In this document: piece by piece, positions 9,970-20,511 of the stretch | Layout of the letters: each line of letters begins with the position of its first letter | Numbering within the stretch: position 1 is the stretch's first letter | Origin: Escherichia phage MRostami-2023e | Direction: 5' to 3' (one strand) | DNA: 64,000 bases | Sequence record: OQ031495 | Made by a program: the position numbers and the translations under genes | Notes under the pieces: generated by a model | What the model was told of the DNA's origin: nothing | The model's database searches: none | Seen by the model: the letters and a program-made list of their open reading frames with translations, nothing else

Positions 9970-10242
9970 ATGAATAAAGACATTGAAATCGTACGTGAAA
10001 TTATTACTATTGCTTCTATTTTGATTAAATTCTCTAGGGAAGATATTGTTGAAGACCGAGCAAGTTTCATCGGATTCTTGAATGAGATTGGAATTAAAAA
10101 AGATGGTCGGCAGCTAAATCAGAATTCGTTCAGAAAACTAATTACAAATTTAACTGCCGAAGAAAAGAAAACACTGATTAGTGAATTCAATGAAGGTTTT
10201 GAAAATATTTATCGTCATTTAGCGATGTATTCTAACAACTAA
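9970..10242 (+). CDS. hypothetical protein
   Basis: 90-aa ORF; its stop abuts the convergent holin gene. Confidence 0.5.
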   Translation: MNKDIEIVREIITIASILIKFSREDIVEDRASFIGFLNEIGIKKDGRQLNQNSFRKLITNLTAEEKKTLISEFNEGFENIYRHLAMYSNN

Positions 10243-10902
10243 TTATTTAGCCCTTCCTAGTATTCGGACCGCTTGGTTGCATATAGCCGCTAAGCGGTCC
10301 TCCTCAAGTATATTATTCCCCTTATACCAATACATCGTCACAGTTCCAGCATAGATGTTATCCAAATTAAAGTATGGACAACTATACATATAAGAAAGTT
10401 CGGCGGTCTTAGATTTTGTAGGCAAAAATGCAAATTCTGATTTAGATGAGAAATGACGGCCGCTTAAATGAATTATATATTCATCGGCCGTTTTATCCAC
10501 TGGGAATCCGCCAAGGGACTTTTCAGAAATCGTGCTAGGTAGTTTGCCTTCATAAGCTATAAGGTCGACAAAATAATTTAAGTTTTTAGGTCTGAAAGAA
10601 TACACAGCACTAAAATCTGCACCAGATGAGATATGAACTATTTGCAGTTGTTCTAGAGCCGCAGATTCAAAACGTAAAGCTCGTTCTTTTTGGATTATTT
10701 CAGTATAAGTATCATACTTAGCTCTTACATAATAATCCAGTAAAATACTTCCTTTGTACCATATTAGTGCCATTAGGAACAAAAGAATAATTACCGCTAC
10801 TCGGGACATTAAAACCTTTCCAGTAGCGTTATCTTTGAAAATACGATCTAGCAACCCAAATAGAATATCACTAAGCGAAAATGATACTTTTGGTGTTGCC
10901 AT
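10243..10902 (-). CDS. t: holin T (lysis-timing holin with large periplasmic domain)
   Basis: 219 aa; ..SDILFGLLDRIFKDNATGKVLMSRVAVIILLF..YSCPYFNLDNIYAGT..RILGRAK matches T4 T (218 aa). Confidence 0.93.
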   Translation of the reverse strand: MATPKVSFSLSDILFGLLDRIFKDNATGKVLMSRVAVIILLFLMALIWYKGSILLDYYVRAKYDTYTEIIQKERALRFESAALEQLQIVHISSGADFSAVYSFRPKNLNYFVDLIAYEGKLPSTISEKSLGGFPVDKTADEYIIHLSGRHFSSKSEFAFLPTKSKTAELSYMYSCPYFNLDNIYAGTVTMYWYKGNNILEEDRLAAICNQAVRILGRAK

Positions 10903-10911
10903 AATACCTCC

Positions 10912-11463
10912 TTACTTAAAGATATTTATAATCGCTTTGACAATAGATTTGTTTTCAAGGTCCGGGAATTTAGGGAATTCACCGCCAAGATGTTCATGTT
11001 TTTCTAAAAGGGCAAAGAATTTTTTGAGCTCTTTAAATTTTCGTTTTTCTTCTCTATTAGCAACCTCTGCGTCAATAAGAGAACTTAAAACACTGAATAA
11101 TTTATAGAGTTCATGAATTTTCTTATCACGTTGAACTACGCGTTTATATGCTTCATCTTCCTTCCACCCGTCATCGGTCCAAATGTCAAATTCACCAGGT
11201 TCTTCTGTAGTAACATTTTGAAGAGCACCTGGAGTGTCAATAACAATTTTTTGCTTATCATAAGTCCATACTGTTTTTCCACGATGGTCTTCAACATATA
11301 CCCATTCTTGCTCGCGTTCGTCAAATATAACAGCATAGCCTTCTTTAGGGTCTAAAGGTTTTTTTGATGTCGAGTGAGCCGGAAGACCCATACCTTTAAT
11401 CGGTTTGTAATTTTCTTCTTTGTAAAATTCTTTAGTGTCAAAATAATAATGATATATTTTCAT
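10912..11463 (-). CDS. 38: gp38, T4-type tail fibre assembly chaperone
   Basis: 183 aa; MKIYHYYFDTKEFYKEENYKP.. matches T4 gp38; adjacent to gp37. Confidence 0.9.
   Translation of the reverse strand: MKIYHYYFDTKEFYKEENYKPIKGMGLPAHSTSKKPLDPKEGYAVIFDEREQEWVYVEDHRGKTVWTYDKQKIVIDTPGALQNVTTEEPGEFDIWTDDGWKEDEAYKRVVQRDKKIHELYKLFSVLSSLIDAEVANREEKRKFKELKKFFALLEKHEHLGGEFPKFPDLENKSIVKAIINIFK
10923..10930 (-). promoter_or_regulatory. late promoter TATAAATA for t, inside the 3' end of gene 38
   Basis: plus-strand tatttata 21 nt upstream of the t start codon. Confidence 0.55.
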
Positions 11464-11470
11464 ATTTAGA

Positions 11471-11486
11471 AGGGGCCGAAGCCCCT
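11471..11486 (-). other. GC-rich UUCG-loop hairpin between genes 37 and 38, no clear U tract
   Basis: aggggccgaagcccct; possible attenuator or RNA stability/processing element. Confidence 0.4.
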
Positions 11487-11490
11487 CTCC

Positions 11491-14400
11491 TTATGCTAAA
11501 CGAACGATATAGTTAAAAGCAACGTTTTTAACTGTGTTTTCTGTATTACCTGTACTATTTACAGTTATTGTATGTCCATGGGAACCAATTGCAACAGTAT
11601 GAGAATGAGCACCAATACCAACAGTATGAGAATGAGCACCAATACCAACAGTATGAGCATGGTTACCAGTAGCGCTAGTAGTTCCTGACCAACTATGAGT
11701 GTGGGCACCATCTGAAGAAGTTTTGGCCATATTCGACGATGCAGTAGCACCGCTCACGGTTGCAGTGAATTTAGCGTTGCCGTTTGGACCCGCACTATTG
11801 TATCCATCATAGAATATGCTAGTGGGTATGCCGCCTTGTACCTGAGGACCTGAACGCGCGTGTTGGTGCGCACCAGCGGAACTAGTATTACCACTCACTG
11901 TATGGTTATGGTTGCCAGTGGTATTACTGGTCTTAGTACCATAATCAAAGCTTGAAGTCGTTTTGCTACCGTAATCAAAACTAGAAGTGGTCTTAGTACC
12001 CAAATCTGTGTTTGATGCACTTGCACTATGGCTATGTGACTTAACACCGTCTGCTTCTGTACTTAATACAGCACGCCCAGATGGTTTACCCTTAATAGTT
12101 TGCCCACGCATATCAGGAATAGTACCTGTAGGATATGCGATAGCAAGCTTAGGATAAGCTGCGGTATCAAAGGTCTGACCTTCCATTAAAGCAAATCCAG
12201 CAGGAATTGAATCGCTTGGCCATGGAATNNNNNNNNNNNNNNNNNNNNNNNNNNNNNNNNNNNNNNNNNNNNNATTTAATGTGGTATTCAGGTTAGCAAA
12301 GTTTCCTGAACCGCCCGTGATATTACCATCAGTGCCAANNNNNNNNNNNNNNNNNNNNNNNNNNNNNNNNNNNNNNNNNNNNNNNNNNNNNNNNNNNNNN
12401 NNNNNNNNNNNNNNNNNNNNNNNNNNNNNNNNNNNNNNNNNNNNNNNNNNNNNNNNNNNNNNNNNNNNNNNNNNNNNNNNNNNNNNNNNNNNNNNNNNNN
12501 NNNNNNNNNNNNNNNNNNNNNNNNNNNNNNNNNNNNNNNNNNNNNNNNNNNNNNNNNNNNNNNNNNNNNNNNNNNNNNNNNNNNNNNNNNNNNNNNNNNN
12601 NNNNNNNNNNNNNNNNNNNNNNNNNNNNNNNNNNNNNNNNNNNNNNNNNNNNNNNNNNNNNNNNNNNNNNNNNNNTTGTCCTAATTGCATTCTGAAATTA
12701 GGAGCAATACGACTATGACTTGCTAATACAACACGCTTACTGTCATTGTCCACAGTAATCATATTACCGCCAGCGCCATCATCTCCTAACGTAACAGAAT
12801 GGCGCATTTGTACCATACCATTATNNNNNNNNNNNNNNNNNNNNNNNNNNNNNNNNNNNNNNNNNNNNNNNNNNNNNTCTTTAGGAGTCGGGATAATATG
12901 TAATGCTGTTTCTGAACGACGGAAAATAGCACCGTATTCGGCGTTCCAAATTCTCAATGCATTTGCTGTTCCGCCAAATTTAGCTTGTCCATTTACAGAC
13001 AATCCATTATTTGCAACTAAGCTTGATTCGGTTGTAATAGAACCNNNNNNNNNNNNNNNNNNNNNNNNNNNNNNNNNNNNNNNNNNNNNNNNNNNNNNNN
13101 NNNNNNNNNNNNNNNNNNNNNNNNNNNNNNNNNNNNNNNNNNNNNNNNNNNNNNNNNNNNNNNNNNNNNNNNNNNNNNNNNNNNNNNNNNNNNNNNNNNN
13201 NNNNNNNAATGAGTTACCCCATGCCTTAATAATCACATAGTTTTTATTCTGTCCTTCGCGAGTACCACCGTTCCATTGGATAGCTCTTGTTTCATCAACT
13301 TTGCTAGGGGCGCCAAATTTAAGGCCTGCAATATTATTAGAATTATTTAAAAATAATTCATTGTCTAATTTAACAGGTTGGATAGAAGAAATAGTGCCGT
13401 CAGCATAAAACTGTACGTTATTAGAACCAGTTACCAGTTTAAGAATACCTGGGTTAATTTCCATACCTTCCTGTGTATTAATGTTGGTTTGGCCTTTACC
13501 ACGGAAATAATGGGAAAATTTACCGCCAGAATTATATCCAATGTGGGTTTGACCATCACCTGCATTGTTTGTATCAGCCTGGGTTTGAACCGATAAAAGT
13601 GCGGCGTTGGTTCCAGGCATTGTCCAGGTTCCGCCTTGGTCTTCTGAGCGTCCAAATAATGCTTTACGAGTACTACGGAAACTATCAGGAGTAATAGAAG
13701 CAACAGAATTCCAATTACCTACTAAATCATAAACACCCTGCTTAATGTATTTTAAACCAGTGGCAGCATCACCTAAAGCAATATATCTTTCTCCCATTGG
13801 AGTAGGAGAACCATAGTTGTTAGTATTTTCATCAGTGGTAATTGTGCCAATAGCAAGTGAACGACGTAATACCATTGCGCCATCATTACGAAGACCCATT
13901 AATTTAGTAGTAAGTGTATTTCCGGTCCACCAAGAAATTTCATCATTCTTACCAGTTTGAGCTGAAGCGATTTCATGGTAAATAGTTCCGCCTGATTTAG
14001 CGCGAACTTTACGAAGATAGTTTACACCATTTTCTTCGCCTGTTCCAGGATAAACATATTGAACTAATGATTGCGAATCATATTGTCCGAATGCTTTTGT
14101 GTCCAAAACAATGGTTTTCGTATTAACTTGTGGAGCAGAAACTATACCATTGGCAGAGTTAATATTGCCTGATGCAGAAATATTACCTGCGCGGACCTCA
14201 ATACTACCAGAATCTACAATAAAATTACCATTACGGTTAAAGACCCAGTGTTTAGAATTGTCTGGAGCTGTAGAATCAATATAATGAACTCTAAATGAGC
14301 CTTCGCTTACTAGTGTACCTACCGAAAAAGTACCGTCTTTATAACGTTGCTTAATCAAAGGGTGGTATTCTGAAACAGAAGTAGTTGAACTTAAATCTGT

Positions 14401-14733
14401 AAAGATAGGGGCTTTATTCGAATGTTGGTTAGCCCAAGCGCCATTACCAGCTATTTTAGGCAAGAATTCGATATACTTTCCTGCATAAACAAACTGGTTT
14501 CCATTAAGATTATATGAGCCGTTTTGTAAATAATCACCATTTTGAGTTACATTACCGTTAATATCCCCGCCCTTAGCAAAGCCTAGGCTAATAATATTAC
14601 CAAGGTCATCTTTAGTAAAAAGAGTTCGATCTTTTAAGTTTATCGCTAATTCGCCTTCGGCTAATTGTGCTGCAGTAGGATTAACTCCTGCCACTTTGCT
14701 TCTTTTAAATTGTATCTGTTTTAATGTAGCCAT
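11491..14733 (-). CDS. 37: gp37 long tail fibre distal subunit (receptor-binding tip)
   Basis: 1080 aa; N-terminus [13 protein letters not shown]..; C-terminus with HxH repeats ..[34 protein letters not shown]..; four N blocks inside. Confidence 0.93.
11585..11665 (-). repeat. three tandem 27-bp units encoding the repeated HSHTVGIGA / HxH motif of the gp37 tip
   Basis: accaat(t/a)(g/c)caacagtatgaga(a/c)tgagc repeated 3 times. Confidence 0.7.
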
Positions 14734-14741
14734 AAGTCCTC

Positions 14742-15407
14742 TTAATAATAGCCGAAATCTTGAACAGAATCTTTAATTACAATCTGGTCGAAACGAGGAA
14801 CATGATTAGCCTCAGACGCCGGATTCTGTGAGAAAAAGTTTGGTGCTGTTAAAGTACCAGTCATGGTATCGCCTTTACGCAATACACGGGAATTTGCGTT
14901 ATCCGTAACAATATTTATTCGTCCATCAACATAATCTTTTCTTGTGAGATCATTTGCTGCAACCGGAGCAGTAGCGTTAGAACGGACAGGACCAGTTGAA
15001 TAAATACCACCTTTAGTGCTGATATCACCAGTACGAGTGTTAACAACAACAGTTCTACCTGCAGATCCTTGTGATGATTTAAAACCAATGCCATACCATG
15101 AAACAATATCAATATTTGCTGTATCAAAAGTAGCAGCATCGCCATTGCCAGGATAAATACCACTTTGATTTGTGTTATTTACGGCATAAGGTACTTGCAC
15201 ACCATTATTAAATGTTACTCGAGCGGCATACGTACCACCATTTGCTTTAGAAACGAAATCGTTATCAGCCGCTTGTGGTTTATTATATTCTGAATAGAGT
15301 TTAAACGTTTTATACAGGACGTCATCACCTGCTGGCATTAAAGGGAAATTACCTTGATGCCATATAACAGCACCGCCAGTTGTACTACCAGCTTTTAAAT
15401 CGGCCAT
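14742..15407 (-). CDS. 36: gp36 long tail fibre distal connector
   Basis: 221 aa; [29 protein letters not shown].. matches T4 gp36. Confidence 0.92.
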
Positions 15408-15431
15408 AGTTGTCTCCTTATATGTATACCA

Positions 15432-15439
15432 TATTTATA
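15432..15439 (-). promoter_or_regulatory. late promoter TATAAATA for gene 36
   Basis: plus-strand tatttata 25 nt upstream of the gp36 start. Confidence 0.6.
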
Positions 15440-15446
15440 CAAAAAT

Positions 15447-15464
15447 GGGAGACCGAAGTCTCCC
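15447..15464 (-). terminator. GGGAGAC-UUCG-GUCUCCC hairpin after gene 35
   Basis: gggagaccgaagtctccc; minus strand reads hairpin then AUUUUUG. Confidence 0.6.
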
Positions 15465-15469
15465 TAAAT

Positions 15470-16597
15470 TTAGTCTGATGCTTCTTTAAATTCTTGACCA
15501 AATACCTTACCAGTATCGGTTGAAGATTGAGTAGTTAATGTCATTATGTCTGGGGCACTTAAAGATTCTGAAACATAATTTACACGAATACCATTTATAC
15601 CAAACTCGGCAGGTTTTGAAACGCTTCCATTACATGATACTTCAGTGAATATAACGTTTCTTAATCCACCTTGCCCGACTGGAGCTGTACGATAACAATA
15701 AATCGTGAACCCGTCAGCACCAGCAGGAATTTCTATGTAGTCTTCATATATCTTCCATTCACCTGCAGCCCCATCAAAGTTTGTATCCTTAAATGAAATA
15801 GGTGAAGTAGAAGGAGATTTAAAGAAACGAATAGAAAGTCGCGTCGTCCCTTGTGCTAACAAATCGGCATCGGCCATTAGTTGGAATTTCATATAAAGGA
15901 AATCTCCAGGCTTCAATTTATACCCAGTGAGAGGTGTAATAACGGACGTTGTAGGCATCCTTTTAATTTCATTATTAGCACCTCCAACAGCAGATAAAAA
16001 TGTGTCTGTCGATTCGTACGTACGTCTAGGGAAGCCGGTAGCACCAATATCATCGATCGTGTCGTACACAACATCAAGTGGTGTACTATAGTCGGTTGAA
16101 GTTTTCTTATTACTATACTTAATATGTTCTAGTGCTATAGCATTCTTACCAGAAATATAAAACGCAGAATAAGAAATGTCCACTATATTTAAAACTTGTT
16201 GAGCTAATGGAATAACAGAACTCCCAGCTTTAGTAAACCATGCGAGAACTTCAGGTGGAAAGTTTGTTTTAGCGTTAGTAACAAGAGCAAATATAAAATT
16301 TGAAGCATATGTGTCCATGTAAGTAACAAATGCACTTGACGTGGCGTCGTTTTCAGTAGAGAAATTATATGACTTAGATTCAACTACTGCACCTGTTGTA
16401 GGATTTATTACACGAACGTTTAATCCAACGGAAAAAACCTGGGACCCAAGTGGATTATCTTGAAACTTAATATAAGCAGGAGATGTTGATAGCGGGCAAG
16501 ATCCCGCTATGCTTAATTTAAATCGTACCGAATTGCTTTCCGATAAAAATGGCGTTTGGACGTATCCTTGTCCAAACTTAGCCATAAATTTTTCCAT
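15470..16597 (-). CDS. 35: gp35 long tail fibre hinge connector
   Basis: 375 aa; MEKFMAKFGQGYVQTPFLSESNSVRFK.. matches T4 gp35. Confidence 0.92.
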   Translation of the reverse strand: MEKFMAKFGQGYVQTPFLSESNSVRFKLSIAGSCPLSTSPAYIKFQDNPLGSQVFSVGLNVRVINPTTGAVVESKSYNFSTENDATSSAFVTYMDTYASNFIFALVTNAKTNFPPEVLAWFTKAGSSVIPLAQQVLNIVDISYSAFYISGKNAIALEHIKYSNKKTSTDYSTPLDVVYDTIDDIGATGFPRRTYESTDTFLSAVGGANNEIKRMPTTSVITPLTGYKLKPGDFLYMKFQLMADADLLAQGTTRLSIRFFKSPSTSPISFKDTNFDGAAGEWKIYEDYIEIPAGADGFTIYCYRTAPVGQGGLRNVIFTEVSCNGSVSKPAEFGINGIRVNYVSESLSAPDIMTLTTQSSTDTGKVFGQEFKEASD

Positions 16598-16605
16598 AAT
16601 ACCTC

Positions 16606-19600
16606 TTATTCAATCCACTCGAATTTAACAGATTTATTCACAGGGTCTGGAATAATGCGGACATTACCAATCCTTAAGAAATCCCTTATTGTCAAGTTTC
16701 CGATTGTTGCATTATCAGAAGGTAAGGCACCAATATCAGAAGGTTGAGGAGGGTTTCCGCCATCAAATACCTGAACAAAACTTGACCAAGAATTTTTAGT
16801 TTTCTGCCATGTACGTGTCCAGCGAGTGGTACGTGCGTCTGGAGTTGTTGGATAAGTAATCCAATCTTGGTAAAGTGAATCAAGAGTATTGCCAAATTGA
16901 GTCAAAGTACCAGGAGATTTAACTTCTTCACCACGTTCTAAGTATGGAAGCCCAGTCACTTCATTAGTTTTTTCAACCATTTTAAAATAACCTGGGAACT
17001 GGTTATAAGTGGCTGAATCATTAATATCAATTGACCAGAATCCTACAGTATCGGATGTTGGCGCACGAGTATATAAGTCAGATGTTTTAGTACCCTGAGA
17101 ACGAATTCTAGAGTTAACAGTCAAACCATCTGAATTTATAGTAGCACCTTTGGCAATGATTAAGCCTTCACCAATCGTTACTTGGCCGGATGCATTATTA
17201 ATAGCTAAAGGACGTAATCCATTAAATCCGCCAGTCTGATCGCCTGATGCAGTGAGCATAAAATAGGTATTAGCAGCGTCATTACGAATAAAGAATCCGT
17301 AATCACCACTAATTGCTCTGAAAGCATTTGCAGACTTACTAATGAATTCGCCATTAGCAGTAACTGAACGTCCGAATGTTGCAACGCCATTAACATTCAT
17401 CAAACCGGAAGCATTAATGTTTATTGGCATCACAGTACCATTAATGCTAAACGCTATATTCCCATCTTTATTACGTTGAGAATAAAAATGATTAGACGTT
17501 TCATCACCAACTTCAAATACAGTAGAACGTGTTGTATCTGATCCGCCACCAAACTGATTTCCCCAAACTCTGATAGTCATTGTCTGTGCTGGATTAGTTC
17601 CAGTTTGAGGTCCTTTCTCAAAAATCAGACGAGTTGCCGTTCCAGTATTAGAAATAGTTAATGTACTATTTGCCGAAACTGACCCACCAAACGTAGCAGT
17701 ACTAGATGATACAAGAGGGGCACTCAGATTAGTTTGTTTCGTTAAGGTTAGTGAACCATTAACCGTCTGTGCAATATCCCTACGAATGAACTGAGATGAA
17801 TCTATGCCATCTAATAAATTTGCGTCAGCAGCTTTTGCTTTTAATGGCAAATAGTTAGCAAGTACACGGTTTAATTCATATGGAGATATAGCATAGCTAT
17901 TTTTTTCATATGATTCTAAAGGTTGTGTTGAACCGACTGTATCATTACCAACGAATGTAATTGAACCAGATGAAGTTTTAACAAAACCTCTTATCGCCGT
18001 AGTAGCAGCCCATGTTGGTTCACTCTGGACAATCCATTTTAAATTCTTAGGCGATACAGCAGTATTAGCAGAAGTTCCTGTTACAGTTTCAGCCCGAGTA
18101 GCAACCTTAATTACACCTTCAGACGTTTCAGTGGACTTAGTCCCTAAAAGCTTTTTAGGAGTAATAAGAACATCATCTAAAGTTCCTGCATTAGATTCTG
18201 CCTGGGTCGCTACGCGAAGTGTACCACGTTGTGTTTCATTTGCTTTAGAAATATCAAGAGTATAATGGTTCCACAAGGTTCCTTCTTCAATAAGTCCGGA
18301 ATCAGAATTAACACTGGTACGGTCAGAAGAATCAAAATGAGTTTTAATTTTCAGTGGAGTCGAGATACGAGTATCATCAGTTCCAGTATCAAATTCAACT
18401 TGCGTAGCAAGTTCGGCTATGCCGGATAATCCTTCCGTAGCTTTCCTATCATTTAACGTCTTAGGCGTTACTGCCCGCGTATAATCAGTCCCAGCATTAG
18501 TTTCTGCTTGCGTAGCAATTTCAATTAAACCAATACGTCCATCAGTAGAAGTTTTCTTATGTAGTGTTTCAGGAGTTACTACAGCATGAGAATAACCTGC
18601 TTGAGATTGTCCAGCAATTACTTCACTATCGACAGCTAAAATTACTGCACCTTGTTGAGCATAAGTTGCTTTATATTGGTCAAGGGCTTTAGGAGAAATA
18701 GTTAACGTGGTTGTGTCTTTATTATAAACATTAGTGCCTGCAGCTCCACGAGTCGCGGCAGGTGTAGCAGAAGTAGTTGATACATATTTAACTATACCAG
18801 ATAGTGTTTCAGAACCCTGACGTGCCTGCAATTTCTTAGGTGTAATAATTGTTGTGTCATCAAGACCGGCATCAGTTTCAGCCTGAGTAGCAATTTCAGC
18901 AAGACCACGACGAGTTTCAGTTGCTGTACGCTCGTTTAGTTTTTTAGGCGTAACAATAGTATCATCCACAAATGCTGCAGTGGAATTCTGGTTAACTTGT
19001 GCTGTTGTAGCAATTTTAGCGATACCACGACGAGTTTCAGTTGCTGTACGATTTGCCAACGTTTCAGGAGTAATAGCCACTTCTTTAGCTGGAGTATTCT
19101 CTAAATCAACATTTGCTTGCGTTTGAGTAGCAAGAGCAATAACACCTAAACGAGCTCGTGTAGCATCAGTTCCAGCATCAACACGTTCTACCGTAGGGAC
19201 ATTCTGTTGCACAACCCAATAATGAGTGTCAGAATCGGTGTCTTCGATATACGCTAATTCTAATACAGGAACATATGAAGTAGTGCCATTGAATTCTAGT
19301 TCAGTAACAGAGACCCATTGAGTATCAGGTGGATATTCAGAACGTTTAGGGAACTGAAGTAATGCAACAGAAGAAGCAATTGTATCACCTTCGGCAGCTT
19401 TAATTTTTACTGTTTGGCCTTTACGCATGTAGTTCATTGAAATTTTAACAGTGTCACCGGTCAAAATTCCTGTAGGAAGCGTAAGGTTAATAGTTTCTGC
19501 TGTAGCGTTATTTGTACCAAAAATAAGAACTTCTTCATTTGGGCGAATATTTGAATCTGTACGGATAATACGAAGACGTGATTTCTGGTCGCCTTCCCAT

Positions 19601-20481
19601 ATACGCCATAAACTATTTGCAGCATCAAAAACAAAAAACGAGTCAGAAGAAGTTCTACCTTCGACGATATGAGTCCCGACTTCGCCAATAGACGTTGTAT
19701 CATCAAATGTTTTAATAATCGTATGATACAGTGGGTTTAATTTATCTAAATCAACTAGGCTGATTATATCACCATTGTTAGCATTACGTGGAAGTGTAAT
19801 GTTGATTGGTGCTGCACTAGTAAAACGAAGAACAATAAAATCGTTTGCTTGCGCTTGATATGGTGTAGCAGGTGTAACAGTGATTGATTCTTTACCGTAA
19901 TCAATGATATACATCTGCCACAAACGATTACTAAACACAAACACTAGTTGTGAACGCGGACGCGTCATTAAAACTGTACGAACTTGTTCGCCTCTAAAGT
20001 TTAAAATACTCTGCACAGACGCGTTAATCTGTACTTTAACTGCCCCGGTTCTTCCACCAATATCAGCCAAAACAATAGTGTCACCATCAACCGGCGCATT
20101 TGGCAACGTGAAAACCATATCATTGCCGGCACCAGTGTTAACCGAAATCGATTCACCTGAAGAAAGTTGATAAGTCCCAGAAGCTACAGTTATCCATTGT
20201 GCATCGGTACGAACTGCACGCCATTGTAAAAGGTTAAATGCCCCGGAAGGAGACACGATATCATTTATTGCTTGATATAAACGGTTGTCATAAAGAACAA
20301 CAAATCCTTTGTTATATCCACGCGTAGAATCATATACTTGAACGGTGTTTTCTTGTACCAGGAAGTCAACGTTTACGCCATCAGTACCTACTGTACGGTC
20401 GGCTAATGCTACGTTAACAATCTTGTCGCCACCGGCGTCCAGACCGTCTTCGGCTCTGAACTTACGTTTGATGTCGGCCAT
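16606..20481 (-). CDS. 34: gp34 long tail fibre proximal subunit
   Basis: 1291 aa; MADIKRKFRAEDGLDAGGDKIVNVALAD..; internal ~22-aa repeats (..ATETRRGIAKIATTAQ.. etc.). Confidence 0.95.
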   Translation of the reverse strand: MADIKRKFRAEDGLDAGGDKIVNVALADRTVGTDGVNVDFLVQENTVQVYDSTRGYNKGFVVLYDNRLYQAINDIVSPSGAFNLLQWRAVRTDAQWITVASGTYQLSSGESISVNTGAGNDMVFTLPNAPVDGDTIVLADIGGRTGAVKVQINASVQSILNFRGEQVRTVLMTRPRSQLVFVFSNRLWQMYIIDYGKESITVTPATPYQAQANDFIVLRFTSAAPINITLPRNANNGDIISLVDLDKLNPLYHTIIKTFDDTTSIGEVGTHIVEGRTSSDSFFVFDAANSLWRIWEGDQKSRLRIIRTDSNIRPNEEVLIFGTNNATAETINLTLPTGILTGDTVKISMNYMRKGQTVKIKAAEGDTIASSVALLQFPKRSEYPPDTQWVSVTELEFNGTTSYVPVLELAYIEDTDSDTHYWVVQQNVPTVERVDAGTDATRARLGVIALATQTQANVDLENTPAKEVAITPETLANRTATETRRGIAKIATTAQVNQNSTAAFVDDTIVTPKKLNERTATETRRGLAEIATQAETDAGLDDTTIITPKKLQARQGSETLSGIVKYVSTTSATPAATRGAAGTNVYNKDTTTLTISPKALDQYKATYAQQGAVILAVDSEVIAGQSQAGYSHAVVTPETLHKKTSTDGRIGLIEIATQAETNAGTDYTRAVTPKTLNDRKATEGLSGIAELATQVEFDTGTDDTRISTPLKIKTHFDSSDRTSVNSDSGLIEEGTLWNHYTLDISKANETQRGTLRVATQAESNAGTLDDVLITPKKLLGTKSTETSEGVIKVATRAETVTGTSANTAVSPKNLKWIVQSEPTWAATTAIRGFVKTSSGSITFVGNDTVGSTQPLESYEKNSYAISPYELNRVLANYLPLKAKAADANLLDGIDSSQFIRRDIAQTVNGSLTLTKQTNLSAPLVSSSTATFGGSVSANSTLTISNTGTATRLIFEKGPQTGTNPAQTMTIRVWGNQFGGGSDTTRSTVFEVGDETSNHFYSQRNKDGNIAFSINGTVMPININASGLMNVNGVATFGRSVTANGEFISKSANAFRAISGDYGFFIRNDAANTYFMLTASGDQTGGFNGLRPLAINNASGQVTIGEGLIIAKGATINSDGLTVNSRIRSQGTKTSDLYTRAPTSDTVGFWSIDINDSATYNQFPGYFKMVEKTNEVTGLPYLERGEEVKSPGTLTQFGNTLDSLYQDWITYPTTPDARTTRWTRTWQKTKNSWSSFVQVFDGGNPPQPSDIGALPSDNATIGNLTIRDFLRIGNVRIIPDPVNKSVKFEWIE

Positions 20482-20511
20482 TCGTTTTTCCTTTATTGTT
20501 TCAATAATACT

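Follow-up and report, generated by a model that had tools for sequence, protein, structure and literature searches.

The 3' end of gene 37 in Escherichia phage MRostami-2023e most probably encodes a T4-type receptor-binding tip, and its tandem DNA repeats would be the coding footprint of a periodic needle rather than a mutational device; we assign this explanation as a whole a probability of about 0.85. The analysed window is a 64,000-nucleotide stretch of the phage genome (OQ031495), in which the genes are ordered 36-37-38-t-asiA as in T4. The T4-type tip architecture is already known, and gp37 proteins with seven to nine His-x-His (HxH) motifs (PMC6563267), the Mosigvirus gp37/gp38 type and OmpC targeting have all been published; the findings on this tip do not overturn current understanding.

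Architecture of the gp37 tip

The gene and the parts of its product that were assigned to the tip are as follows, from the N-terminal to the C-terminal end of the protein.

11491-14733, minus strand: gene 37, long tail fibre distal subunit, 1080 aa (ORF list; vB_EQ1 annotation; BLAST)
12040-12228, minus strand: Collar domain (N-terminal part of T4 domain D10), aa 836-898, from IPWPSDS to just before HxH 1 (Pfam PF07484; 2XGF alignment)
12028-12036, minus strand: HxH 1, HSH (H900-S-H902), equivalent to T4 H883/H885
11917-12006, minus strand: ascending-arm tandem array, 3 x 30 bp (repeat search, family at 11928-12015; unit analysis; 10-aa T4 gap against 2XGF)
11902-11910, minus strand: HxH 2, HNH, equivalent to T4 H915/917
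11860-11868, minus strand: HxH 3, HQH, equivalent to T4 H929/931
11704-11859, minus strand: head (tip) domain, aa 959-1010, 52 aa, hypervariable, predicted receptor-binding (head comparison; PMC6957217, PMC10844046)
11566-11703, minus strand: descending arm, HxH 4-8, including the 27-bp array (TRF, repeat search, motif scan)
11695-11703, minus strand: HxH 4, HTH
11653-11661, minus strand: HxH 5, HAH
11626-11634, minus strand: HxH 6, HSH
11599-11607, minus strand: HxH 7, HSH
11572-11580, minus strand: HxH 8, HGH
11494-11565, minus strand: C-terminal return strand, 24 residues, near-identical to the 2XGF C-terminus

A phmmer search of the PDB matched the last 245 residues of gp37 to 2xgf_A (E=1.6e-74; query 1-245 against chain 35-242), and the Pfam Collar family PF07484 was matched with 5.8e-10 (39.4 bits; cut-off, 24). 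The seven HxH positions of T4 (883, 915, 929, 966, 980, 989 and 998) are all conserved, and one more is present. These three results bore out the view of the earlier note that the region is a T4-type needle tip. Collar, ascending arm, head, descending arm and return strand can all be aligned with T4, with an overall tip identity of ~60%, whereas the heads are essentially unrelated (52 aa against 34 aa in T4, with 10 of the 52 positions aligning). In the T4 structure (PDB 2XGF), domain D10 forms the collar and D11 the needle and head, with seven Fe ions (PMC6957217, PMC12609058, PMC9659904); the chain turns back on itself in the head, and the number of HxH motifs tracks needle length (PMC12609058). 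The T4 counterpart of the return strand, D10 residues 1010-1026, rejoins the collar (PMC6957217).

Eight HxH motifs were found, three in the ascending and five in the descending arm. The longer His-x-His series reported earlier is thus real, but its count was too low, five or six having been noted and the first and the last missed. HxH 2 and HxH 3 (11860-11910) are 14 aa apart, and the spacings from HxH 4 to HxH 8 are 14, 9, 9 and 9 aa.

Both arms contain a tandem array. At 11584-11661, Tandem Repeats Finder (TRF) detected an array of 2.9 copies with a period of 27 bp (score 135, 94% matches), and a second repeat search found it again in register at 11570-11677. The longest run of identity at a distance of 27 nt was 39 nt, whereas 2000 shuffles gave at most 14 (periods 6-60). 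Its minus-strand product of 36 residues contains two exact copies of GIGAHSHTV with one degenerate unit on each side, the two exact units (units 3 and 4) being identical at 27 of 27 nucleotides. The array of three GIGAHSHTV units previously placed at 11585-11665 therefore exists, but as two exact and two degenerate units, not as three identical ones. The 30-bp array at 11917-12006, overlooked in the earlier note, is translated from the minus strand into 30 residues and gives three ascending 10-aa units, compared with two in T4 (starting at D893 and F902/D903). In the 2XGF alignment, T4 gaps of 10 aa and 9 aa fell exactly at the two arrays; the MRostami-2023e tip exceeds that of T4 by a single 10-aa unit in the ascending arm and a single HxH-containing 9-aa unit in the descending arm. 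TRF analysis of the whole fibre module (10200-20500) yielded no other array scoring above 40, barring a trivial 15-bp x 1.9 repeat in gene 38.

In the proposed structure, three chains would each climb from the collar, fold into a small head and descend again, producing a six-stranded needle. Metal ions, Fe2+ in the case of T4, would hold its core together, and the six histidines binding each ion would presumably come from one HxH motif in its three copies. The ascending 10-aa unit (D-x-G-x-K...) would lie beside the descending 9-aa unit (G-I-G-A-H-x-H-x-V), and closer to the head the pairing would be between 14-aa HxH units, one from each arm. Published T4 contacts, G921-F970 and G964-H929 (PMC6957217), give i+j of ~1892, which would place the descending HxH motifs 998/1000 and 989/991 opposite D893 and F902/D903. 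The ascending and descending arms span 59 and 44 aa (difference 15), compared with 49 and 35 aa in T4 (difference 14).

This arrangement predicts eight metal sites, compared with seven in T4, and a needle that would be one layer longer, by ~9-10 residues or ~3 nm. With eight ions per fibre, a virion would carry 48, against 42 in T4. The extra layer and the eighth site were deduced from sequence periodicity, since the AlphaFold2 monomer model of the 245-aa tip was poor (26-sequence alignment, mean pLDDT 58.9, pTM 0.24); the protein is an obligate intertwined trimer.

Equal copy number of the two arrays

Three independent samplings yielded 222 unique homologous tips, in which we surveyed the coupling of the two arms, taking the longest HxH gap, with the first gap excluded, as the head. 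The number of 10-aa units equalled the number of 9-aa units, and the number of ascending 14-aa units equalled that of descending ones, in 221 of the 222 tips. Ten copy-number combinations occurred, nine of which obey both equalities, and the number of 10|9 modules per tip ranged from 1 to 6; MRostami-2023e has three such modules and one 14|14 module, whereas T4 has two and one. The spans of the two arms were correlated with r=0.994 and differed by 14.7 +/- 0.9 aa. A few proteins with a single ascending HxH (e.g. P0237) were misparsed automatically and obey the pairing by eye. Equality of ascending 10-aa and descending 9-aa units is a rule for T4/lambda-type fibre tips. The arrays would be held to equal copy number because the hairpin must stay in register, and the same constraint would keep the count from varying among close relatives.

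The rule also holds for side tail fibres of the lambda Stf/Tfa type, encoded by E. coli prophages and other temperate phages; these proteins made up the large majority of the best 120 database matches to the tip. Their tips are homologous (57-77% identity over 245 aa) and their chaperone is likewise a Caudo_TAP protein, whereas most of their needles are shorter, (42 | 9,9,9) or (32,14 | 14,9,9), their heads differ and their N-terminal shafts are unrelated.

The tenth combination came from an IMG/VR metagenome contig, L003 (3300030021_000020), which has three ascending units and only two 9-aa spacings. This contig falls short of all its relatives by exactly 27 nt. It has intact ORFs for g37, g38 and t, and its remaining GIGAHTHTV unit is that of T4 in DNA. 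Either the pairing constraint is not absolute, or the contig is defective or misassembled.

The paired 10/9 (and 14/14) modules might make needle length a quantised, selectable parameter, a reading that we consider unlikely. If it were true, needle length would tune the reach of the head through LPS/O-antigen to the porin, the number of modules would affect host range independently of the head, variants in a single array such as L003 would be transient intermediates, and equality of ascending and descending units would be a design principle for engineering fibre tips. The equal-number rule itself should be useful for grafting or resizing T4/lambda-type tips in phage engineering.

Constancy and homogenisation of the 27-bp array

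An alternative function for the 27-bp array, put forward in the earlier note, is that of a slippage or recombination hotspot, a contingency-type locus at which changes in tip length would alter host range. Its central units are identical in DNA and could serve as a slippage substrate, unit number spans 1 to 6 in the wider family, and the metagenome contig is short by exactly one 27-nt unit. However, the array has only 2.9 copies, and the count of repeat units across isolates that had been proposed as a check gave an invariant number: 158 related phage records aligned gap-free over 11530-11720, so that copy number was not polymorphic among these close genomes, and the metagenome contig was the one exception among all the sequenced relatives examined. 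Across the wider family, 9-aa units vary in number only in step with the 10-aa units of the opposite arm (221/222 tips), a joint change that a single slippage event cannot produce. Host specificity, moreover, maps to the head, between HxH 3 and HxH 4, and not to the needle (PMC6957217, PMC10844046). A host-range switch in the array is thus not supported; we consider it very unlikely and largely refuted already.

The perfect duplication is a recent local event and not a maintained feature, since units 3 and 4 were only 20-24/27 identical in the relatives APCEc01, moha, O157tp3, Bas42, C6, F2 and VR25. Among the relatives with eight HxH motifs, vB_EQ1 shares with MRostami-2023e the DNA identity of the two units, and both MRostami-2023e copies equal unit 4 of APCEc01. 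This pattern shows lineage-specific homogenisation, in which unit 4 was probably copied over unit 3 in the MRostami-2023e lineage by short-patch conversion.

Short exact tandem repeats are sometimes miscounted, and the duplication could in principle be an assembly or sequencing artefact. A 1317-bp region is nevertheless 100% identical in the GenBank genome of vB_EQ1, and the moha record annotates a repeat_region on the 27-bp array, on which grounds we rejected an assembly artefact. In addition, every relative has an equal number of units with diverged sequences, and a repeat of 54 nt fits within any sequencing read, which leaves this explanation scarcely credible.

Mosaicism of gp37

Comparison by BLAST showed that residues 1-508 and 836-1080 of gp37 are 100% identical to those of phage vB_EQ1, whereas the shaft block between them (aa 509-835) differs and the vB_EQ1 protein has 1177 aa instead of 1080. 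The protein is collinear with gp37 of phage JS09. The masked runs of the window are as follows.

12229-12273: masked run
12339-12675: masked run
12825-12877: masked run
13045-13207: masked run

They correspond to aa 509-563, 619-637, 687-799 and 821-835, within the shaft block that is mosaic relative to vB_EQ1, the closest relative. A suggestion that the masked parts of gp37 hide the most variable region was therefore correct as to the mosaic shaft block, but the hypervariable head at 11704-11859 is unmasked.

Relatives with eight HxH motifs occur in Mosigvirus and Tequatrovirus (vB_EQ1, moha, APCEc01, JS09, AV110/112/113, MM02, WFbE185 and Bas42); they share the (42,14 | 14,9,9,9) layout and are 90-100% identical in nucleotide sequence over g38 and the 3' end of g37. 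The head is identical to that of moha at 52 of 52 positions and to that of Bas42 at 41 of 52. Relative to moha, the head and ascending arm are 98-100% identical and the descending array 82-90%. The descending array as a whole is probably a recombinant patch, which would fit histidine motifs as crossover points.

The HxH-coding stretches could accordingly act as short homology blocks, or 'His boxes', for recombination among co-infecting T-even phages and prophage fibre genes that swaps heads and whole needles, the repeats being kept partly because they promote modular exchange. Recombination at such a 'His box' was reportedly proposed by Tetart et al. in 1998. This explanation is compatible with the structural one, and we hold it tentatively, at somewhat short of an even chance. 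Breakpoints flank the descending array, the head and ascending arm being moha-like and the descending units APCEc01-like; the GIGAHTHTV unit of the metagenome contig shares its DNA sequence with T4; and one tip module is found on T-even, lambdoid, P2-like and Felixounavirus fibres. A lambda-like phage has also been described as the source of T4 g38 and of the 3' end of T4 g37 (PMC3157838). The mosaicism, however, spans ~160 nt in three or four genomes and is suggestive, not statistical; recombination was deduced from the mosaic pattern, and structural constraint alone explains the conservation of the motifs.

Gene 38 and receptor binding

Downstream of gene 37, two features were assigned.

11464-11490, minus strand: 37-38 intercistronic region, 27 nt (RNA fold; relatives' alignment)
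10912-11463, minus strand: gene 38, T4-type tail fibre assembly chaperone, 183 aa (T4 gp38 identity; Caudo_TAP; PHROG 105)

The gene 38 product is identical to T4 gp38 at 122 of 179 positions (68%, E=1e-93), and both proteins have 183 aa. It matched PHROG 105, 'tail fiber assembly', with 4.4e-50 and, marginally, Pfam PF02413 Caudo_TAP (23.4 bits, cut-off 22.1), and no T2/T6-type gp38 adhesin family was found in Pfam or PHROG scans of the product. The gp38 adhesins of T2, T6 and S16 are also encoded downstream of g37 and carry out receptor recognition at the fibre tip, but they are ~260 aa long, contain glycine-rich motifs and hypervariable segments, stay on the gp37 tip and are unrelated in sequence to gene 38 here. 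These results agree with the earlier assignment of gene 38 as a T4-type chaperone and not a T2-type adhesin. gp38 would thus act in folding and be absent from the finished fibre.

Since gp38 is a T4-type chaperone, gp37 itself is the predicted adhesin, as the earlier note had held and as has been published for the Mosigvirus phages AV110/112/113, which have a T4-like gp37, a chaperone gp38 and predicted OmpC binding (PMC10844046). In a screen of 73 phages, all 17 of 17 OmpC-specific Straboviridae had a T4-type Gp37 C-terminal domain, and the 54 phages with a Gp38 adhesin target other porins (bioRxiv 10.64898/2026.04.02.716166). The head at 11704-11859 would set the receptor, which, judging from these relatives, is most likely OmpC. 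A literature search found no receptor reported for a phage with the exact MRostami-2023e head, and that of Bas42 is absent from the main text of PMC8594841. The annotation of the window is thereby settled: gp37 carries its own predicted adhesin, gp38 is only a chaperone, and the putative host-range determinant is the unmasked 52-aa head.

As in T4, gene 38 lies behind a ribosome-binding region with a UUCG hairpin. The 37-38 spacer contains GGAG at 11487-11490 and a GGGGC-UUCG-GCCCC hairpin at 11472-11485, followed by the AUG of gene 38 at 11461-11463. It folds with -15.6 kcal/mol (z=-2.7) and is almost invariant in T4, moha, Bas42 and C6.

Composition of the tail-fibre module

A T4 long-tail-fibre module, in T4 gene order, occupies 10243-20481 on the minus strand of the window, with asiA on the opposite strand. 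It comprises the following genes:

16606-20481, minus strand, gene 34
15470-16597, minus strand, gene 35
14742-15407, minus strand, gene 36
11491-14733, minus strand, gene 37 (1080 aa)
10912-11463, minus strand, gene 38 (183 aa)
10243-10902, minus strand, holin gene t

Over gene 38 and the 3' 740 nt of gene 37, Escherichia phage vB_EQ1 (PQ516281) is 100% identical to the window, and many Mosigvirus isolates, including moha, TU01, JS09, p000v, APCEc01, AV110/112/113, MM02 and WFbE185, are 90-96% identical.

The gp37 tip and gp38 form a known kind of system

The crystallized T4 gp37 tip (PDB 2XGF) matches the last 245 residues of gp37 over their whole length (E=1.6e-74), and this region also contains the Pfam tail-collar domain. 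All seven His-x-His (HxH) motifs of T4 gp37 (883, 915 and 929 on the ascending arm; 966, 980, 989 and 998 on the descending arm) are conserved in the window gp37. Papers citing the T4 structure place the T4 collar (D10) at 811-881 and 1010-1026 and the needle with the head (D11) at 882-1009, the chain doubling back at the head to form a six-stranded trimer needle with seven Fe ions on HxH motifs (PMC6957217, PMC12609058, PMC9659904). The gene 38 product shares 68% identity with T4 gp38 (E=1e-93) and matches Caudo_TAP and PHROG 105 'tail fiber assembly', and no T2/T6 adhesin-type features were found in it by these three comparisons. These results support the identification, in the earlier note, of a T4-type tip with a T4-type chaperone rather than a T2-type adhesin.

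All of the features flagged there, including the T4 needle with its HxH/Fe sites, have already been described. Mosigvirus phages possess a T4-type gp37 with a chaperone gp38 (PMC10844046), related isolates, among them MM02 and WFbE185, have seven to nine HxH motifs in gp37 (PMC6563267), HxH number has been linked to needle length (PMC12609058), and the GenBank record of moha annotates a repeat_region on the 27-bp array. The tip and chaperone cassette is common to virulent and temperate phages: among the 120 best protein matches, nearly all of the closest (P0003-P0120) were side tail fibre proteins of prophages in E. coli, Shigella and E. fergusonii rather than T-even phage proteins, and a lambda origin has been reported for the T4 g37 3' end and g38 (PMC3157838). 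In Escherichia and Salmonella phages of the genus Felixounavirus, tail fibre genes also contain DNA 70-84% similar to the HxH array (H126-H155), several records having two to four places that each match the array.

Two tandem arrays encode parts of the needle arms

Tandem Repeats Finder detected a 27-bp repeat (2.9 copies, 94% matches) at 11584-11661, which a second repeat search recovered in register. The run identical at a 27-nt offset was 39 nt, against a maximum of 14 in 2000 shuffles at any period of 6-60. The array, which encodes part of the descending arm, yields two exact 9-aa units between degenerate flanking units, and gp37 contains eight HxH motifs (aa 900, 942, 956, 1011, 1025, 1034, 1043 and 1052), confirming the repeats and the HxH series of the earlier description, which was essentially right. 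A further tandem array (3 x 30 bp, 11917-12006), missed in that description, encodes 10-aa units in the ascending arm. Outside the head, T4 gp37 shows gaps against the window gp37 at exactly two places: 10 aa of the ascending arm, corresponding to an additional DYGxKTTSSF unit in the window gp37, and 9 aa of the descending arm, corresponding to an additional GIGAHSHTV unit.

Copy numbers of the two arrays are paired

Tips were sampled in three independent ways, from the best 120 matches among 5.8 billion proteins, from 80 IMG/VR loci and from 149 representatives of 50%-identity clusters, and together they gave 222 unique tips that could be parsed. In 221 of the 222, the His-free ascending spacer held as many 10-aa units as the descending HxH array had 9-aa spacings, and those 221 also had equal numbers of 14-aa HxH spacings on both arms. 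Ten copy-number combinations were found, with 1, 2, 3, 4 or 6 paired 10|9 modules and 0, 1 or 2 14|14 modules, and nine of them satisfied both equalities. The spans of the two arms were correlated (r=0.994), with a difference of 14.7 +/- 0.9 aa across the 222 tips.

The tenth combination was represented by a single tip, from a metagenome contig (IMGVR_UViG_3300030021_000020, 1501-2205), which has three 10-aa ascending units but, compared with all its relatives, is short of one 27-bp descending unit. The g37, g38 and holin t ORFs of this contig are intact, and its remaining GIGAHTHTV unit is that of T4 at the DNA level. This tip may be a true product of slippage or recombination, or it may be an assembly error.

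The contacts G921-F970 and G964-H929, published for T4 (PMC6957217), imply a hairpin register of i+j ~1892. In this register, the descending HxH motifs 998/1000 and 989/991 of T4 would align with D893 and F902/D903, where the two ascending units begin. Read most simply, each 10|9 pair would make up one needle layer with one metal site. The units of the window gp37 would then be physically paired in three such layers, versus two in T4, which would predict eight metal-binding sites and lengthen the needle by roughly 3 nm. The monomer modeled with AlphaFold2 was too poor (pLDDT 58.9) to inform this reading. The quantitative pairing rule, which was not found stated in the gp37-tip literature examined, is a modest addition and follows naturally from the hairpin topology.

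The 27-bp array is constant in number among relatives and homogenized in the window

The earlier note proposed that slippage or recombination in the 27-bp array could vary tip length and host range. In 158 phage records, a 191-nt probe covering the array (11530-11720) aligned with no gap, T4-class genes leaving the alignment where the unit is missing, and the descending-unit count was identical in all seven relatives compared (APCEc01, moha, O157 typing phage 3, Bas42, C6, F2 and VR25). The proposal is therefore not supported, and among relatives the array is not a variable hotspot.

Units 3 and 4 are identical in the window (27/27) versus only 20-24/27 in those seven relatives, and unit 4 of APCEc01 is the same as both copies. 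From these sequence comparisons, the perfect repeat is the result of recent homogenization in the vB_EQ1 lineage by conversion over a short tract, changing GIGAHTHSV to GIGAHSHTV with the count unchanged. This evidence for unit homogenization is the other modest addition of our analysis. In the ascending array of phage VR25, the 30-bp units 1 and 2 are 28/30 identical, versus 22/30 in the window (11917-12006), so neighboring units were also homogenized in this array, in a different lineage.

Identity to moha is 98-100% over the head and ascending arm (11685-12124) but falls to 82-90% over the descending array (11525-11684); APCEc01 is 98-100% identical to parts of that array. The tip region thus looks mosaic, which fits histidine motifs as crossover points, as reportedly proposed by Tetart et al. 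in 1998.

The masked runs lie in a recombinant shaft block

gp37 aa 509-563, 619-637, 687-799 and 821-835, masked runs of N, all in the shaft

All four runs fall within aa 509-835 (12229-13207). JS09 gp37 is collinear with the window gp37, with 1080 aa in both and 81-95% identity in the unmasked shaft pieces. In vB_EQ1 gp37 (1177 aa), this block is replaced by a different sequence, with 39% identity in the sole alignable piece (125 aa), and both flanks are 100% identical; the masked part therefore lies in a recombinant shaft block. The suggestion that masking may hide the most variable region of gp37 holds to that extent, but the hypervariable receptor-binding head (11704-11859) lies entirely in unmasked sequence. 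This head is the same as that of moha and matches that of Bas42 at 41 of 52 positions, whereas the 34-aa head of T4 gp37 aligns at only 10 of 52.

In a screen of 73 Straboviridae phages, the 17 OmpC-specific phages were those with a T4-type Gp37 C-terminal domain, and 54 phages with Gp38 adhesins targeted other porins (bioRxiv 10.64898/2026.04.02.716166). OmpC is used by Mosigvirus AV117/118 and is predicted for AV110/112/113 (PMC10844046), the latter being ~92% identical to the window over gene 38 and the gene 37 3' region. Because of this screen, use and prediction, the primary receptor of the window phage would most likely be OmpC.

Translation start region of gene 38

The 37-38 intercistronic region (11464-11490, minus strand) contains GGAG, a GGGGC-UUCG-GCCCC tetraloop hairpin and then AUG, and is nearly invariant in T4, moha, Bas42 and C6. 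A distance of ~23 nt separates the Shine-Dalgarno sequence from the start codon, and the hairpin presumably brings the two closer, an arrangement resembling the split ribosome-binding site for which T4 gene 38 is a classic example. At 11404-11432, in the 5' portion of gene 38, lies a weak tandem repeat (15 bp x 1.9, TTTGTAAAATTCTTC), which probably arose by chance or at the codon level.
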